DNA of 64,000 bases from Candidatus Thorarchaeota archaeon. GTDB lineage: Archaea; Asgardarchaeota; Thorarchaeia; Thorarchaeales; Thorarchaeaceae. This document shows, in pieces, positions 52,048 through 56,150 of this stretch. The position numbers were made by a program, and so were the translations under genes. How positions within the stretch are numbered: position 1 is the stretch's first letter; each line of letters starts with the position of its first letter. A model generated the notes under the pieces. It was not told where the DNA came from. It did not search any database and saw only the letters and a list, made by a program, of their open reading frames with translations. The DNA lies in NCBI GenBank assembly GCA_016839445.1, contig JAEOUG010000039.1, positions 2,933 to 66,932 on the forward strand, in the 5' to 3' direction.

Positions 52048-54177
52048 CTACCTGAAACCTCCTGACACGCAGGCACTGTGACAAGCACTGTGACAAGCAC
52101 TATGGCACACGCAGGCACTGTGACAGGCGCTATGGCATGCACTGTGACACGCATCATGGGACACACAGGCACTATGACAGGCGTCGTGCGAGACACAGCG
52201 ACTTGTGCCCTCAATCAAGGGTCTCAGTGGCTCCGAAATGATCTGGCCCACATTGTTCAGCACACTACCTATTGTCTGTGCCACGTTGTTAATGATTTGG
52301 CCCGTTGTTGCCGCGACATCTCCCACCACTCTGCCAACGCTGCTGATGGCGTTGCCAGTGGCCTCGGATAGTCCGGCGAACCAGTCTGGAACCGTAGGAG
52401 GTGCCATTGCAGTTCCGGGTTTGGTAAAGGCGTCATTGAGATAGTCGTTGTGCCTTGGGTGCATGTAGAGCCAGTACCAGGCCCAAGAGTCGTAGTATCT
52501 GCGGTTGAAGTAATAGTCCATTCTGCCATCAAGGGTGGGCTCCTGATTCAGCTCATCCCAGGCGCCATCAACCATCTCATCATGATGAGCCCGTGTGGCC
52601 TCGAAGTCAGCTTGCCATGCCTTCTCCTGGACTCTATCGGCAAGCTCCTCTAGCATCTCGTCGACACGGTTCGGATCAAGTCGCCCGTCGACTATGGCAG
52701 CCACGAACATCTCTTCATAGTACGTGAGGTCCTGGAACTGCAGTCCTGTTACTGATAGCTCAAGCGGATCGGTTGACAGGACTCGGACAGCACCCTTTCT
52801 AACACACGACATCAGAATCATGGAAACAAGCTTCTGGCGCGTTGTGTTGATGAAGAACGCGGACTCAATTGGGTCAAGCTCAGCCACAGTCCCTGGCTCT
52901 CCAAATGTCTGGATGGCAATCTCAGGGGACTCATAGACGTAGGTTGTGTCATCGGCGGTCCATTTGGCACCATAGCCACTGGTTGCCTTCTTGTAGCCAT
53001 AATAGACAAGCCCAATTGCCACTACTCCTGCGAAGAGAAGAATGAGGGCTTCCGGGGTCAGCAGGGGAGGGATGTACTCCCTGACATATACATCGACAGA
53101 GAACTGCTGCCAATATGTGCCGTTCAGATTGCTTACTGAAATCTGGAACTCAATGGTCAGAATCTCAGGTGTGTTTGCAGGCACGAATCTATAGACGGTC
53201 TCTATCCCCTCTCCCCCATATAGGGATCCTAGATAGGTGATTGCAGAGCCGGAGGTCAACGTGAGATTCTCCGGAACCGACATCGCTATGGTGACATCCT
53301 CAAGAACCAGATCCCCATAGTTGAACACGTATATCTCGAGTTCGAACTCGGTATCTGCATTGGCGTTGATGTATGGCTCTGTGGTGTAACCTATGGCTCC
53401 CATCTCGGCATAGGCCTCGTAGAAGCTCCAATTGGTGTAGTGGAAGACTCTGAAGTGATCGTAAGGTGCAAGTGCCGATTCCTCAAGACTCACTGTGAAG
53501 TATCGTGGGTCCGCCGACGAGCTGTAGGGATATGCAAGCAGGTTCTCTTCGTCAAAATCATCACGCGATCCACCTGACCACAGACCTTGGTTCTCGTCGA
53601 CAACGTATCCCGCGAATTCAGCACCTTCTGTGGTCACGCCATGACTGGGCTCAATCCATGCCGGACTCATCTCTATGGGGTAGACCACCTGCACCTGTTC
53701 ATAATCCACGGGAACATTCCATTGCACAGGTGCCCAGTTGAAGACGCCAAGGTCTCCGTAGGTCACTGACGTAGTCATCTCAACCACGCGGTTGATGCTG
53801 AAGTAGCCAAAGACTACGAGAACGGTCTCTCCCTCGGGTGTCTTGGGCACCCAATCAAGGGCGTAGCCTCCGCTTCTCTCGGACACAATGAGGTCATATC
53901 TGCTGCCACCCCATTCAACGTAGGCGCGACTTGGGTCATCCACTGTTGTCTCCTCGATTCCGAGAAGATCGAAGCCTCCAAGAGAACCACTAACCACTGA
54001 GATCTCAATCCAGTACGTGACATTGATACGTCCGTTCTCTTGCACCCACACGTCAACGAGGATGCTGTCCAGATTGACTTCCGGAGCCTGACTTGGAACA
54101 CTGGCATTCACAACAACAGGAGTGAAGACAACCAGTAATAGACAGATGAACACTAGGTGTCGTAGGTCCCGTTTCAC
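52048..54177 (-). CDS. DUF2207-like membrane protein with a C-terminal (A-C-H-S)n Cys/His repeat tail
   Basis: 709 aa with a signal peptide and a DUF2207-like N-domain ([39 protein letters not shown]). It has one central TM helix and a post-TM [10 protein letters not shown]...[12 protein letters not shown] segment. The tail is [49 protein letters not shown]. Confidence 0.75.
   Translation of the reverse strand: [709 protein letters not shown]
52051..52197 (-). repeat. 12-nt-period coding tandem repeat (GCACTGTGACAR-like units on the plus strand)
   Basis: Visible units on the plus strand are gcactgtgacaa, gcactgtgacaa, gcactatggcac, ...gcactgtgacag, gcgctatggcat, gcactgtgacac, ...gcactatgacag. 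They encode period-4 ACHS/ACVS repeats. Confidence 0.85.
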
Positions 54178-54207
54178 ACTGCTACCCTCTAGTACAACTT
54201 CGTCGGA

Positions 54208-54687
54208 CTACTCGCCTCGTCGGGCTCTGATTATCTCGGACTGGGCAATGGTAAGGTTGGAGAGGTCGGCCTTTGCAGAGGCCCACTCTTCGAGGTCGGG
54301 AAACTCCTGAATCATGCCTCCCCAGATGAGGTGGTAGACACGTTTGAGTATGTTATCAGAGTCAGAGCCGCTGCCTACGTACTCGAAGAAACACTTCACG
54401 GTGGCCGGGCTCTGGTCAGTCATCTTCTCAGGGACTTCAGTACCGAATCCTGCAAATGCAACGTCAATCTCCTTTAGAACGTCCATCCGCTCACGAATAC
54501 CAGCGGCAATCACAGGCAGGTCCATGTCGTAGGCACTGAAGTGCATTATCAGCTTCTTCCCACTGATTGTACCATATGGTAGCTTAGTCTCTTTCGCACT
54601 CATGTATGACACTCCGCAGCGATACTGAGCCCTGTTCAGTACCATGGACTGATAAAGTCTTTCAGAGGCCGGCATGAAGAATCCCAA
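54208..54687 (-). CDS. Hypothetical protein
   Basis: 159-aa ORF between the rSAM gene and the DUF2207-like gene. The start is probably internal (MSAKETKL at 54603), because only 29 bp would otherwise separate the divergent starts. Confidence 0.5.
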   Translation of the reverse strand: MGFFMPASERLYQSMVLNRAQYRCGVSYMSAKETKLPYGTISGKKLIMHFSAYDMDLPVIAAGIRERMDVLKEIDVAFAGFGTEVPEKMTDQSPATVKCFFEYVGSGSDSDNILKRVYHLIWGGMIQEFPDLEEWASAKADLSNLTIAQSEIIRARRGE

Positions 54688-54716
54688 TCCTTAAGATTCC
54701 CGCAGTTCCTGCCAAC

Positions 54717-56150
54717 ATGATGTCTGGCCAAGACTCTCCACCCCAATATGACTATACCATGGAGGACCTTCACTGGGTCGATAGGTTTGTAGACGAGGTG
54801 AGGGACTTCTTCTTTGTGAGGCCAGAAGACAACCTACTGATCTTGCGTCCAAACAAAGTCATGCACCTGAACGTCACTGCAATGAAAATGCTAAGAATGC
54901 TCCTTGATGGACATGGCACAGAATCAGTAGTCGACCACTTCGTGTCTGCGGGGGCGGAGAAGCAGAGAGTACTCAATGATCTTGCAGCTTTTGTCGATGA
55001 CTTACGCAACATGACAATCGGGAATCAGAACATCTACACATACAGCACTGCAAAGATTGTCCCCTTCGGCACTGGTGACATTGACTATCCAGTTCTAAGC
55101 GAGATTGCTGTGACATATCGCTGCAACAACAAGTGTAGATTCTGCTATGCCTATTCTCCCTACCGAGACACCAACGAGATGTCCACCGAGGACATCAAGA
55201 GAGTCATTGACATCATCGTCGACGACGCCAAGGCTCCGAGCCTGTCATTCACGGGGGGTGAGCCAACTCTCAGAGAAGACCTCTTCGAGCTCATTAGTCA
55301 TGCGCGGAACAGAGGCCTTCGGGTCAATCTAATCACGAACGGCCGTCGCTGTGCAAGCAAGGAGTTCGTTGCGAAACTCGTAGAAGCGGGCCTCCACAGT
55401 GCCCAGGTCTCAATTGAGGGCCCCGATCCTGACACACATGACTACATTGTGGGAGCACCCGGCGCCTTTGCCCAGACTGTGCAGGGAGTCAAGAACCTCC
55501 GCGAGACTGACATCTACACACACTGCAATACTACCATCTGCCGACCGAATGTTGACAAGCTGGAGGAACTCGTGGACTTCTTGGCTGATGAGCTCAAGTT
55601 ATCCTATTTCAGCATGAACATGGTAATCTACACAGGGACCGCAGCAAAACTCCGCGACGAGCTTCAGATTACGTATTCGGAGATCTCGGACATCGTCAAG
55701 AGAGTGAAGCGTAGGGCCAACAAGAAAGGAATCCAGTTCGTTTGGTATGCCCCAACACCGGTCTGTCTATTCAACCCGATTGCCCACGGGCTGGGGGCGA
55801 AGAACTGCGCCTGCTGTGACGGACTGATCTCTGTGGACCCGGAGGGCGGATTGCTGCCGTGCTCAAGCTTCAGCGAACCCGTGGGGAACCTCTTAGAAGA
55901 GGGTTTTGACAGAGTATGGAACAACAGAGCGTCGAAGTTCTGGAGGGCTAAGGACTTCGCCCCAGAGGGTTGTAAGGCCTGCAAGCACTTTAGCTACTGC
56001 TTTGGGGCGTGTCCACTGTACTGGGACGTCCACGGATTCGATGAGATAAAGCAGTTCTGGCCAGAGAGGAGTCGAGTGCGTGAGAAGGTCGACGAAGTCC
56101 GTCTTAATCTCCGAAGGAGGATTCGGGGCGACCAACACGGCATTACTTAG
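54717..56150 (+). CDS. Radical SAM/SPASM-domain enzyme with an N-terminal PqqD-like (RRE) domain
   Basis: CNNKCRFC (C136/C140/C143, 55122-55145), SFTGGEPTL, and a C-terminal 8-Cys block NCACC..LPC..GCKAC..YCFGACP. The N-terminal ~100 aa read NLLILRPNKVMHLNVTAMKMLRMLLDG...LNDLAAFVDDL. An alternative start is at 54759. Confidence 0.85.
   Translation: MMSGQDSPPQYDYTMEDLHWVDRFVDEVRDFFFVRPEDNLLILRPNKVMHLNVTAMKMLRMLLDGHGTESVVDHFVSAGAEKQRVLNDLAAFVDDLRNMTIGNQNIYTYSTAKIVPFGTGDIDYPVLSEIAVTYRCNNKCRFCYAYSPYRDTNEMSTEDIKRVIDIIVDDAKAPSLSFTGGEPTLREDLFELISHARNRGLRVNLITNGRRCASKEFVAKLVEAGLHSAQVSIEGPDPDTHDYIVGAPGAFAQTVQGVKNLRETDIYTHCNTTICRPNVDKLEELVDFLADELKLSYFSMNMVIYTGTAAKLRDELQITYSEISDIVKRVKRRANKKGIQFVWYAPTPVCLFNPIAHGLGAKNCACCDGLISVDPEGGLLPCSSFSEPVGNLLEEGFDRVWNNRASKFWRAKDFAPEGCKACKHFSYCFGACPLYWDVHGFDEIKQFWPERSRVREKVDEVRLNLRRRIRGDQHGIT

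Follow-up and report, generated by a model that had tools for sequence, protein, structure and literature searches.

Radical SAM enzymes mature peptides in RiPP pathways, where the precursor gene normally sits just before the gene for the enzyme; two of those enzymes, SkfB and CteB, are thioether formers. The locus described here lies in a window of 64,000 nucleotides from a Candidatus Thorarchaeota archaeon (contig JAEOUG010000039.1), for which a preliminary description had proposed a maturase with an RiPP recognition element (RRE), a radical SAM core and a SPASM domain, acting on the Cys-His tail of a neighbouring membrane protein. Sequence comparison across genomes supports this reading. 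In the sources searched, neither partner has a family of its own in Pfam or NCBIfam, an annotated name or a published description.

The enzyme (477 aa; 54717..56150, forward strand) carries both of the motifs named earlier, CNNKCRFC (55122..55145) and, at residues 180-185, GGEPTL, and it matches Pfam Radical_SAM at 3.7e-29. The CxxxCxxC pattern of the first motif (C136-x3-C140-x2-C143) does not vary among 77 tail-linked homologues. Its C-terminal cysteine block (C350/C364/C382/C419-x2-C422-x5-C428-x3-C432; 55764..56021) had been read as a SPASM auxiliary-cluster domain, and this is borne out by a Pfam SPASM match of 27 bits, above the cut-off of 21.5, and by the retention of each of the seven cysteines in 97-99% of the same homologues. 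The N-terminal domain (aa ~32-100; 54810..55016), described earlier as a PqqD-type RRE, is a more qualified case: the Pfam PqqD match over aa 42-98 scores 22.3 bits, slightly below the gathering cut-off of 23.4, but the confident AlphaFold (AF2) model (pLDDT 85) gives the domain a β3-α3 fold, with strands at 32-35, 40-43 and 47-50 and helices at 53-63, 68-77 and 82-100 as assigned by DSSP. Block-mean pLDDT for residues ~31-100 is 70-97, with its minimum in block 41-50. In Foldseek searches SkfB is the best match to the model, and the RRE-containing enzymes SuiB and CteB, also among the top matches, align with it over nearly its whole length. We conclude that this is an RRE-radical SAM-SPASM enzyme, and of a peptide-modifying type as judged from its sequence and model.

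Assignment to a named family is another matter. The best sequence matches in the PDB comprise two enzymes that do not act on peptides, Tes and BlsE, alongside SkfB, PqqE and CteB. Among NCBIfam models the cofactor enzymes NirJ2 (145 bits) and AhbD (143 bits) stand slightly above the peptide maturases, PqqE scoring 132 bits; with cut-offs of 381-500 all of these fall far below, and no robust clustering with a family of cofactor enzymes was found. The kinship with ACGX-repeat systems that had been suggested from the form of the repeats stays an analogy, since the NCBIfam model for the radical SAM enzyme of that system scores 98 bits here against a cut-off of 400. Identity of the enzyme is 70-90% across Thorarchaeota and 37-51% to bacterial tail-linked homologues.

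The putative substrate is a single-pass membrane protein of 709 aa, encoded on the reverse strand (52048..54177). A signal-like segment at residues 9-27 and one transmembrane helix (aa 373-399, 52981..53061; hydropathy peak 373-391, AF2 helix 375-399) agree with the topology predicted earlier, and the distribution of Lys and Arg around the helix, one before and three after, would place the C-terminus, and with it the tail, in the cytoplasm. The extracytoplasmic part (aa 29-372; 53062..54093) is modelled as a β-sandwich, with block-mean pLDDT mostly 88-98 in a model averaging 78.7. Its best Foldseek matches are human RPN1 and yeast Ost1, at low global TM-score; the likeness to ribophorin I and to DUF2207-N is one of fold only. 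The label 'DUF2207-like' finds no support from profile searches, in which the protein matched nothing in Pfam even at E<=10, DUF2207 included; hhalign links the ectodomain, at 91% probability, to a protein that itself falls just below the DUF2207-N threshold, which would make any kinship a remote one at best. The predicted cytoplasmic region (aa 400-646; 52240..52980) comprises a disordered linker, a folded α/β domain at 430-585 (pLDDT 80-93) and a low-confidence segment, and is the best-conserved part between thorarchaeal and bacterial homologues (37% identity, 1e-51). It is followed by a pre-tail segment, aa 647-660 (52198..52239), a candidate leader-like recognition sequence, and by the (ACHS)n tail itself, aa 661-709 (52051..52197), the putative site of modification. 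A recount of these 49 residues again gives 11 Cys and 9 His, with the cysteines mostly four apart; the rest of the protein has only two Cys. AF2 draws the tail as helices at pLDDT below 40, and the model is uninformative there. Even unmodified, a tail of this composition would make an excellent ligand for metal or Fe-S.

No other part of the protein is as conserved as the tail. Among 11 thorarchaeal orthologues its mean pairwise identity is 98.7%, compared with 57% for the ectodomain, 57-71% for the other parts and 81% for the pre-tail segment. Repeat number and interruptions are fixed, and the identical residues are encoded with many synonymous differences, including AGY to TCN switches between the serine codon families; the constraint, which is extreme, acts on the protein. 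Within the repeats, 88% of the cysteines have Ala before them and 74% have His after them, and these two residues are conserved no less strongly than Cys. The pre-tail motif PL[KR]P[LI][IVL]E[GSE]TSRC is present in all 13 thorarchaeal tails, and bacterial subtypes have other pre-tail motifs, each fixed within its subtype (21/21 for type B).

Is the association between tail and enzyme general? Homologues of the 709-aa protein with the same architecture and tail occur in both bacteria and archaea. Species-representative genomes were scanned at the DNA level for a 13-residue tail pattern, a search that is independent of the radical SAM gene; back-translated, a pattern of this length occurs twice in the window and never in 100 shuffles. 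The scan recovered at least 115 real tails, from many bacterial phyla and Thorarchaeota, all of them C-terminal and on homologous proteins. A radical SAM homologue is present at 97 of the 103 assessable loci, directly downstream at 92, with a median gap of about -9 nt, and divergent at five. In bacteria the start of the enzyme gene adjoins or overlaps the stop codon of the tail gene, which stands where an RiPP precursor gene would normally be. The other six loci have a tail without the enzyme within the 8 kb examined; one of these tail genes is the second in its genome, which also has a complete pair. Starting instead from the enzyme, a tail-bearing neighbour was found for each of the seven homologues inspected (47-90% identity). 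More distant homologues end in a different tail, the sister-clade type (CA)n, with period 2 and no His, and here, of the 103 metagenome contigs that could be assessed, 101 keep the linkage. Period 4 in the ACHS tails and period 2 in the CA tails need not share one chemistry. Across both domains, about 200 independent loci show the pair. The co-occurrence that the preliminary description had called for is thus strong: linkage of the two genes is near-obligate and often translationally coupled, and it holds for both tail chemotypes and in many phyla. The clade of the enzyme, the tail type and the pre-tail motif also co-vary; all 55 nearest-neighbour enzymes share tail type, a correlation with which organismal phylogeny is confounded.

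The remaining genes of the locus appear to be local additions. First in the divergent operon is a conserved protein, probably of 131 aa (54208..54603, reverse strand) rather than the 159 aa given earlier, because all orthologues (70-80% identical, in the same position at L001, L003, L004 and L005) are 131 aa; the longer reading adds an upstream stretch from a TTG, to 54687, that they do not share. The protein has no match in Pfam, NCBIfam, PDB or PADLOC and is an accessory specific to Thorarchaeota. A metallophosphoesterase (251 aa; 51292..52047, reverse strand; Pfam Metallophos 4.2e-12) directly adjoins the stop codon of the tail gene, as had been noted; it has orthologues in the same position at L002, L003, L004 and L005, and is absent from L001 and from bacterial operons. 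Beyond it the predicted HExxH metallopeptidase (50006..51226, reverse strand) does have the motif, as HEYEH at aa 231, but matches nothing in Pfam and may not belong to the system. Its frame is broken in the window by a TAA at 50225-50227, beyond which tblastn still detects homology in that frame, and orthologues of 402-409 aa lie near the tail gene at L001 and L003-L005. Linkage of these last two genes is confined to Thorarchaeota. Elsewhere, type-A operons add a polytopic membrane protein of ~322 aa, and some type-B operons a Zn-ribbon protein. In agreement with the earlier search, the enzyme gene has no small, free-standing Cys-rich ORF beside it, the candidates being out-of-frame or antisense shadows within larger genes. 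Recurrent neighbours of the pairs include no protease or ABC exporter, and thus nothing suggests a released peptide.

These observations suggest that the locus encodes a protein-modification module of two parts. The signal peptide would direct export of the 709-aa protein and the single helix would anchor it, leaving a C-terminal region of ~310 residues, with the tail, in the cytoplasm. The PqqD-like domain of the divergently transcribed enzyme would bind the conserved pre-tail segment, and the tail would then be the substrate, its cysteines modified one by one by 5'-deoxyadenosyl radical chemistry with the help of two auxiliary Fe-S clusters. That the enzyme covalently modifies the tail we consider probable. 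The likeliest product would be a ladder of intramolecular thioethers, of sactionine or ranthionine type, joining Cys sulfur to carbon of a neighbouring residue, although thioether cross-linking as such can be put forward only tentatively. Cross-linking of this kind would make a floppy tail rigid and possibly metal-binding, while leaving it attached to the membrane protein.

Covalent modification by some other chemistry is plausible, if somewhat unlikely. The known reactions of SPASM enzymes include oxidation of Cys to formylglycine (anSME-like), formation of thiooxazoles (SbtM-like), C-C cyclophane cross-linking centred on His (triceptide-like), epimerisation and the joining of Cys to a lipid or cofactor. 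Matches by structure or sequence include anSME, the epimerase EpeE and Tes (GDGT-MAS), there are weak NCBIfam matches to HxsC (of the His-Xaa-Ser system), SbtM, WgkB and Tes, and the strong conservation of His and Ala in the repeats would suit such reactions. All matches to these families fall below the cut-offs, however, thioether formers are among the best structural matches, and a His-centred reaction cannot be general given that CA-type tails have no His. A further reading, to which we give rather little weight, is that the tail is a store or sensor for Cu(I), Zn, Ni or Fe-S at the cytoplasmic face of the membrane, with the enzyme as assembly factor or docking partner and no covalent change. 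The abundance of Cys (11) and His (9) in 49 residues and the CxxxC spacing with His alongside invite this view, as does the Zn-ribbon protein of some type-B operons; a period of 4 would align Cys and His along one face of a helix, although the modelled helices are of very low confidence. Bufferin-type copper chelators, which are Cys-based, offer a published precedent for Cys-rich, signal-peptide-bearing RiPP-like proteins (PMC12452194). The (CA)n tails tell against it, since they keep the enzyme without His and at period 2, so that the common feature is Ala-Cys and not a helical Cys/His face. Simple metal-sponge tails, moreover, usually differ between close relatives in both length and sequence, whereas this one is fixed to the residue, and an RRE with a full SPASM domain is a hallmark of peptide-acting enzymes. 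Metal binding and modification are in any case compatible, since modification could create a metal site.

It is very unlikely that the tail serves only for docking, the RRE recruiting the enzyme to the membrane to act on a lipid, as Tes does, or on a cofactor. Tes is among the closest solved relatives, NirJ and AhbD head the profile matches, and type-A operons have their polytopic membrane protein, but lipid or cofactor pathway genes are not consistently linked to the pairs, docking alone would not call for 9-12 invariant Cys in a strict repeat, and we know of no precedent for such use. We attach next to no probability to incidental adjacency, or to a low-complexity artefact of slippage without specific function. 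Tandem Repeats Finder does detect periodicities of 12 bp and longer in the tail DNA, and the database sequences of several homologues stop short at the tail, one ending in adapter-like sequence, which shows that assemblies break there. Against this, the chance expectation of the tail motif is about zero, and the reading is refuted by the synonymous codon variation at fixed repeat number, the near-identity of the tails and the linkage to the enzyme across independent loci in two domains.

Taken together, the pair most likely represents a widespread, unannotated RiPP-like modification of the tail of a whole protein. Hundreds of genomes, bacterial and archaeal, have the gene pair, which would mark a tail modification not described before.

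The cysteine-rich tail belongs to a 709-residue protein encoded on the reverse strand (52048..54177), which has a signal-like N-terminus and one transmembrane helix (residues 373-391). As the preliminary description had it, the 49 residues of the tail (661-709) include 11 cysteines and nine histidines; these are 11 of the 13 cysteines and nine of the 17 histidines in the whole protein. With a single transmembrane helix and an enrichment of lysine and arginine after it, the C-terminal ~310 residues should be cytoplasmic, as had been proposed for the tail. The AlphaFold model of the protein (pLDDT 78.7) comprises a confident β-sandwich ectodomain (30-366), the transmembrane helix, a disordered linker, a folded cytoplasmic domain (430-585) and finally the tail, for which pLDDT is below 40. 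Public sources name the tail proteins 'hypothetical'. Neither the window protein nor five homologues have a significant Pfam match at E<=10, the sole exception in the family being the protein of locus L058, a TPM ectodomain of which Pfam recognises; five tested members are without a match in NCBIfam, and a PDB search with the tail-protein profile gave nothing significant. No free-standing, small cysteine-rich precursor ORF lies near the enzyme gene, in agreement with the first reading of the locus.

The tail is the best-conserved part of this protein. Its mean pairwise identity across 11 orthologues is 98.7%, compared with 81% for the 14 residues directly before it, 71% for the cytoplasmic domain and 57% for the ectodomain; in other Thorarchaeota MAGs the tails are identical or one residue apart, for whole proteins that are only 56-73% identical. 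The DNA that encodes the tail carries many synonymous differences, with the serine codons at one position swapping between AGY and TCN, which shows that the repeat has been neither homogenised recently nor driven by slippage. Conservation this strong, the highest in the protein, implies that the tail has a precise structure maintained by selection. In tails of this kind, which we call ACHS type, alanine precedes cysteine in 88% and histidine follows it in 74%, the next residue being serine or aspartate, and the spacing between cysteines is four in 809 of ~950 intervals. The Ala-Cys dipeptide is common to these and to a second, CA type of tail. The pre-tail segment (residues 647-660), a candidate recognition sequence, is fixed inside each subtype and different between subtypes.

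The periodicity of the tail is detected by TRF, and assemblies often break at it; several further homologues end at contig ends just short of the tail. One homologue, P0122, has a C-terminus that reads ...GVGLSLIHI, and LSLIHI is what the Nextera transposase adapter gives when translated; this contig is probably adapter-contaminated exactly where the repeat should start. In another Thorarchaeota MAG (GCA_048882945; locus L002, 2455-4621, reverse strand) the tail gene has an in-frame TAG ~60 codons before its end (..AIGSVL*GVGKII.., against ..SVFEGVGKVI.. in the related locus L001), beyond which an intact tail continues in frame; the gene caller split this gene and called a spurious out-of-frame 62-residue ORF over the tail.

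How widespread is the pairing of such a tail with a radical SAM enzyme? A word-based search with the full 709-residue protein found seven close homologues, mostly broken at contig ends near the tail, and a search with the tail alone gave 84 candidates with one significant match, the word index probably missing low-complexity words. We therefore rely on a search that is independent of the enzyme, in which a degenerate DNA pattern for a 13-residue stretch of the tail was scanned against species-representative genomes. The chance expectation for this pattern is about zero (none in 100 shuffles of the window), and at least 120 genomes matched. The serine codon, written WSN, lets in Cys, Trp, Arg, Thr and stop codons as well, and five of the 120 listed matches (L009, L045, L061, L065 and L077) were discarded as unrelated 12-bp simple repeats; the remaining matches, at least 115, are C-terminal tails of homologous proteins. 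Their listed hosts, with taxa as labelled in the MAG records, are Chloroflexota, Planctomycetota, Spirochaetota, Myxococcota, Acidobacteriota, Desulfobacterota (including a cultured organism, Desulfobulbus alkaliphilus DSM 24258), Gammaproteobacteria, Gemmatimonadota, Verrucomicrobiota, Omnitrophota, Clostridia and others, besides Thorarchaeota.

The position of the enzyme gene was judged within a fetched span of 8 kb at the 113 listed loci in which the stop codon of the tail lies inside the locus. A homologue of the window enzyme is encoded directly downstream on the same strand at 92 of these, with a median gap of about -9 nt, and divergently at five, all from Thorarchaeota; the flanking sequence is too short for a judgement at ten, and at six the enzyme is absent within the 8 kb. 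The co-occurrence of tail and enzyme across genomes, on which the original proposal turned, is thus seen at 97 of the 103 assessable loci among the genome matches listed. One of the six loci that lack the enzyme lies in a MAG with two copies, the other of which does have it. The same pairing is met when one starts from the enzyme, since homologues ~50% identical to it occur on bacterial-type contigs directly 3' of a ~580-residue protein with a signal peptide and transmembrane helix; this protein resembles the window protein in its C-terminal domain (37% identity, 1e-51) and its N-terminal domain (25%), and it too ends in a cysteine-rich repeat tail, with phenylalanine as the last residue. Two ACHS-tailed proteins occur in one Myxococcales MAG, on separate contigs (L017 and L028) and with the enzyme beside one only, and a single metagenome contig (L206) carries two CA-type tails, at 5786-5832 and 7630-7676. 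In genomes with two such paralogues, the same enzyme may act on more than one substrate.

An exhaustive phmmer search of 1.84 billion representative proteins gave 210 clusters related to the 709-residue protein, the more distant of which have other cysteine tails (three kinds were recorded, one of them a hybrid). Three proteins with such distant tails were looked up, and all three adjoin a radical SAM/SPASM gene, with a PqqD match on record for one. A metagenome scan with the CA-type pattern CACACAGCACACAGGG found at least 120 contigs; in 116 of the 120 listed the tail terminates a homologous protein of ~550-700 residues, the enzyme gene being directly downstream in 100 of the listed contigs and on the opposite strand in one. 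It is absent from only two listed contigs with enough flank, locus length being variable. Taken together, the two scans give at least ~230 tail-bearing loci, and the enzyme partner was seen at ~200 of those listed.

Sequence clusters of the enzyme track the type of tail, the nearest neighbour sharing the type in 55 of 55 cases, although this signal of co-evolution between enzyme clade and tail type is confounded by phylogeny. Modules with CA-type or hybrid tails are found in other archaea, namely Promethearchaeota (P0171 and P0235) and Aigarchaeota (the P0186 cluster), so that at least two tail chemotypes exist within Asgard archaea. The Thorarchaeota enzymes, by comparison, group with bacterial systems of Chloroflexota and Myxococcota that share one operon type (type B, below), and this sequence grouping of the ACHS version with Chloroflexota-type systems hints at transfer between domains.

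Clustering of the neighbouring genes across loci resolves three operon types. In type A, found in most bacterial phyla, the tail gene and enzyme gene are followed by one for a ~322-residue polytopic membrane protein (43 loci, no Pfam match). In type B, found in Chloroflexota, Myxococcota, Sumerlaeota and some Spirochaetota, they are followed by genes for a ~395-residue coiled-coil protein and a ~179-residue Zn-ribbon protein, often with a GT4 glycosyltransferase upstream. In type C, that of Thorarchaeota, the enzyme gene is divergent from a small ORF, the tail gene and usually a metallophosphoesterase gene, with a ~405-residue HExxH-motif protein encoded nearby. The recurrent neighbours in ~115 loci include neither a protease nor an ABC exporter, and no Rfam match to a structured RNA was found in the locus.

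The window has the type C arrangement, with three ORFs divergent from the enzyme gene, and the order of enzyme gene, small ORF and ~710-residue ORF is kept in other Thorarchaeota MAGs; the source names of its closest homologues likewise mark the window as part of a Thorarchaeota-type Asgard genome. The small ORF had been given as 159 residues long; it is 131 residues in every orthologue and so most likely starts at 54603. A PDB sequence search with its product gave nothing significant. The metallophosphoesterase gene (51292..52047; Metallophos, 4e-12) does abut the tail gene with zero spacing, as had been reported. Beyond it, the HExxH-motif ORF (50006-51226, reverse strand) is interrupted by an in-frame TAA at 50225-50227, past which homology to the 402-409-residue orthologues runs in the same frame for ~70 more codons. 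As the stop codon is TAA, recoding with selenocysteine or pyrrolysine can be discounted, and it represents a nonsense mutation (a pseudogene) or a sequencing error. Comparison of the operon types indicates that the metallophosphoesterase and HExxH ORFs are lineage-specific companions and not part of the core.

The edges of the module differ between the window and related Thorarchaeota. After the enzyme gene, L001 (11443-12579) and L003 (11413-12564) encode an Ala_racemase_N/D-serine-dehydratase-like enzyme; the same position in the window (56174-57379, reverse strand) encodes a 401-residue secreted, C-terminally anchored protein with no Pfam match, and this is a local rearrangement at the module edge. 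Further out on the reverse strand, tandem 165-residue paralogues (46365..46862 and 46891..47388) take the place of two Usp-domain genes in L004 and L005, and tandem ~270-residue paralogues (58905..59738 and 59731..60543) that of two RIO1-kinase genes in L001.

The putative maturase itself is a 477-residue protein encoded on the forward strand (54717..56150). The CxxxCxxC motif (CNNKCRFC; C136, C140 and C143) and GGEPTL sequence that first drew attention to it are both present, and Pfam recognises its Radical_SAM domain (PF04055; 102.4 bits against a cut-off of 29.5, 3.7e-29) and SPASM domain (PF13186 / TIGR04085; 27 bits against the Pfam cut-off of 21.5). The hallmark of SPASM proteins is a C-terminal seven-cysteine motif that includes CX2CX5CX3C, with two auxiliary [4Fe-4S] clusters. 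In 77 tail-linked homologues C136, C140 and C143 are invariant, and C350, C364, C382 and C419-x2-C422-x5-C428-x3-C432 are kept in 97-99%. The PqqD family model (PF05402) scores 22.3 bits over residues 42-98, against a gathering threshold of 23.4; most homologues have a precomputed match to it, and several bear the NCBI name 'PqqD family peptide modification chaperone'. In the AlphaFold (AF2) model, built from an alignment of 57 homologues with mean pLDDT 85, strands 32-35, 40-43 and 47-50 are followed by helices 53-63, 68-77 and 82-100. The predicted fold of residues 32-100 has the winged-helix topology of a PqqD/RRE domain, which supports the suggestion of an N-terminal RRE, and the radical SAM core and then the SPASM region lie C-terminal to it.

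In structural comparison the best matches of the enzyme are peptide maturases. Foldseek against the PDB ranks SkfB first (4e-15) and SuiB second (1e-14, over 451-456 columns), followed by CteB, with near-full-length alignments (446-456 columns) to the RRE-containing SuiB and CteB; anSME, BlsE, Tes, MoaA, EpeE and viperin are lower matches, and a PDB sequence search finds SkfB, PqqE, Tes, BlsE, CteB and SuiB. A known defence system was considered and rejected, PADLOC giving only generic viperin-like radical SAM matches. No NCBIfam equivalog cut-off is reached by the window enzyme or by its bacterial or CA-type homologues. For the window enzyme the highest scores are for the heme d1 enzyme NirJ2 (TIGR04055, 145.3 bits against 500) and the heme enzyme AhbD (TIGR04545, 142.8 against 500), followed by PqqE (TIGR02109, 131.7 against 381), HxsC (TIGR03977, 111.5 against 267.9), StsB (NF045574, 108 against 625), the ACGX enzyme (TIGR04340, 98.2 against 400) and PapB (NF047865, 92.6 against 340). 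AlbA is absent from this top list, and SkfB (TIGR04403) scores 94 bits against a cut-off of 300 on a CA-type homologue. The slightly higher NirJ and AhbD scores are weak evidence against a peptide substrate, and they are outweighed by the RRE domain, which to our knowledge is lacking in the heme and heme d1 families, and by the gene context. For PqqE, no pqq genes occur in the neighbourhood of the enzyme.

To what family does the tail protein belong? It had been called DUF2207-like, but PF09972 is not matched at E<=10 by the window protein or five homologues, and Ribophorin_I (PF04597) and TPM are likewise unmatched at E<=10 by the window protein. By hhalign its ectodomain is linked, with 91% probability, to a neighbouring protein in locus L131 that itself scores 22.5 bits against DUF2207-N (threshold 24.4). 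The top Foldseek matches of the 709-residue model are to ribophorin I/Ost1 (RPN1/Ost1) in the human and yeast OST complexes, with a best E of 9e-10 but a TMq of only 0.21 and global TM-scores of about 0.2; no STT3 gene is adjacent to the tail gene among the ORFs annotated in 47488-58293. Thus 'DUF2207-like' and 'ribophorin-I-like' are leads rather than memberships, based on modelled structure and profile similarity. To meet a ribophorin-I-like ectodomain (53062-54093, reverse strand) in an Asgard archaeon is intriguing, but the tail-protein family is mainly bacterial. What these families share with the tail proteins is a layout of signal peptide, β-sandwich ectodomain, one transmembrane helix, cytoplasmic domain and low-complexity tail; the cysteine-rich tail and radical SAM partner are features of the present system, undescribed for DUF2207, TPM or ribophorin-I families. 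In L058 (2210-6214, forward strand), from a Candidatus Vecturithrix MAG, three tandem ORF segments group with the tail proteins. In the third segment the ectodomain is a TPM domain (PF04536, 1e-34), and the ACHS tail passes into a glycine-rich end, ...GGGGSSGGGGASGGW (also recorded as ...VSGGGGSSGGGGASGGW). TPM and DUF2207 proteins typically finish in such a glycine-rich stretch, and L058 suggests that the cysteine tails are variants of the glycine-rich tails of these membrane proteins.

These observations, from comparative genomics and predicted structures, on which all our functional statements rest, point to the tail as the substrate of the enzyme. The enzyme has the architecture of a peptide maturase; the genes are linked near-obligately and often overlap; enzyme clade, tail type and pre-tail motif vary together; the tail is under extreme constraint; and there is no other candidate substrate. 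The modified tail would work in place at the cytoplasmic face of the membrane, as is indicated by the lack of release machinery and the conserved body of the protein. Thioether cross-links are the favoured modification, since thioether-forming enzymes are among the nearest structural relatives of the enzyme and cysteine is the one invariant residue of the tail. The reaction may instead be another cysteine- or histidine-centred one, and the tail may have a metal- or cluster-binding role, with or without modification. Two further readings of the tail can be set aside. CHSACH contains the multi-haem motif C-x3-C-H, but against this reading stand the predicted cytoplasmic location of the tail, the overlap between the motifs and the lack of histidine in the sister CA-type tails. 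Its C-terminal position recalls sorting signals of the PEP-CTERM, PGF-CTERM or MYXO-CTERM type, but it has neither a hydrophobic helix nor a basic cluster, and its partner is a radical SAM enzyme, not a sortase.

If the tail is indeed the substrate, the pair is of a known kind, in which a dedicated RRE-radical SAM-SPASM enzyme acts on a cysteine-repeat substrate encoded just upstream, as in SCIFF/CteB, PapA/PapB and ACGX, or QhpD/QhpC for proteins. The sactipeptide and ranthipeptide maturases (SkfB, CteB/SCIFF, PapB/freyrasin and AlbA) share its domain layout, SkfB and CteB being among its best structural matches, and, as in the present putative pair, their substrate is cysteine-rich and its gene lies immediately upstream. 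PapB, which acts on repeated Cys-X3-Asp motifs, offers a close analogy to the period-4 cysteine repeat. Their substrates, however, are peptides of 40-60 residues, whereas the putative substrate here is the C-terminus of a membrane protein of 550-730 residues, with no linked leader protease or exporter, and the pair is conserved across many phyla like a housekeeping module. The ACGX family invoked in the first reading does exist in NCBIfam as TIGR04340, and it shares the period of four, the alanine before cysteine (ACGX compared with ACHS) and a dedicated radical SAM/SPASM enzyme; we know of no experimental characterisation of it. The window enzyme is nevertheless no member, falling far below the cut-off of that model, against which its bacterial and CA-type homologues reach 56-69 bits; the ACGX partner, moreover, is a small peptide of ACGX repeats and not a 709-residue membrane protein with ACHS (or CA) repeats. 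The repeat of the His-Xaa-Ser system is H-x-S, compared with A-C-H-S here.

A parallel in outcome is given by QhpD/QhpC and anSME, in which a cytoplasmic radical SAM/SPASM enzyme modifies cysteines of a protein and the modification stays in the mature structure; QhpD introduces Cys-Asp/Glu thioethers into an amine dehydrogenase, at its gamma subunit, and anSME is among the structural matches of the present enzyme. The substrates of QhpD and anSME are soluble subunits of enzymes and have a few particular cysteines, in contrast to the extended repeat at the end of a single-pass membrane protein; anSME has no RRE, and membership of the QhpD or anSME sequence families was not found for the window enzyme in NCBIfam or by PDB sequence search. 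In a strict RiPP, a precursor comprises leader and core, the leader is removed and the mature peptide released, typically with a protease and/or exporter. With the putative core at the C-terminus of a large membrane protein and no recurrent protease or ABC exporter, 'RiPP-like protein modification' is the better term here.

What is new is the class of substrate, the tail of a conserved single-pass membrane protein, together with the ACHS and CA repeats and the breadth of distribution. Neither partner has an annotation of its own in Pfam (2025 copy), NCBIfam (June 2026) or the source names, and no matching paper was found for either in the searchable literature, an early mention in Haft & Basu 2011 being possible; that the system has already been described somewhere outside the literature searched seems to us unlikely. 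The most far-reaching reading is of an ancient, widespread RRE-radical SAM-SPASM system of post-translational modification, whose product would be a poly-cross-linked or metal-cluster-bearing form of the cytoplasmic poly-(Ala-Cys) tail, kept on a ribophorin-I/DUF2207-like single-pass membrane protein as a new class of cofactor or structural element; we hold it tentatively, with slightly more doubt than confidence. The hosts of the system comprise many bacterial phyla together with Asgard and Aigarchaeota-labelled archaea, and there are signs that it has moved between Chloroflexota-type bacteria and Thorarchaeota.

Work on radical SAM/SPASM maturases has dealt almost entirely with the production of small secreted peptides. 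In the present pair, peptide-maturase machinery appears to be firmly tied to the tail of a membrane protein that is both large and conserved and, if our reading is true, would give that protein a cofactor or structural element instead of making a natural product for secretion. Were the modification confirmed, whole membrane proteins would form a new class of radical SAM substrate, possibly with new chemistry. The tail would then also be a simple sequence marker for finding the system, and the pair would provide the first functional handle on DUF2207/TPM-like membrane proteins with low-complexity tails.
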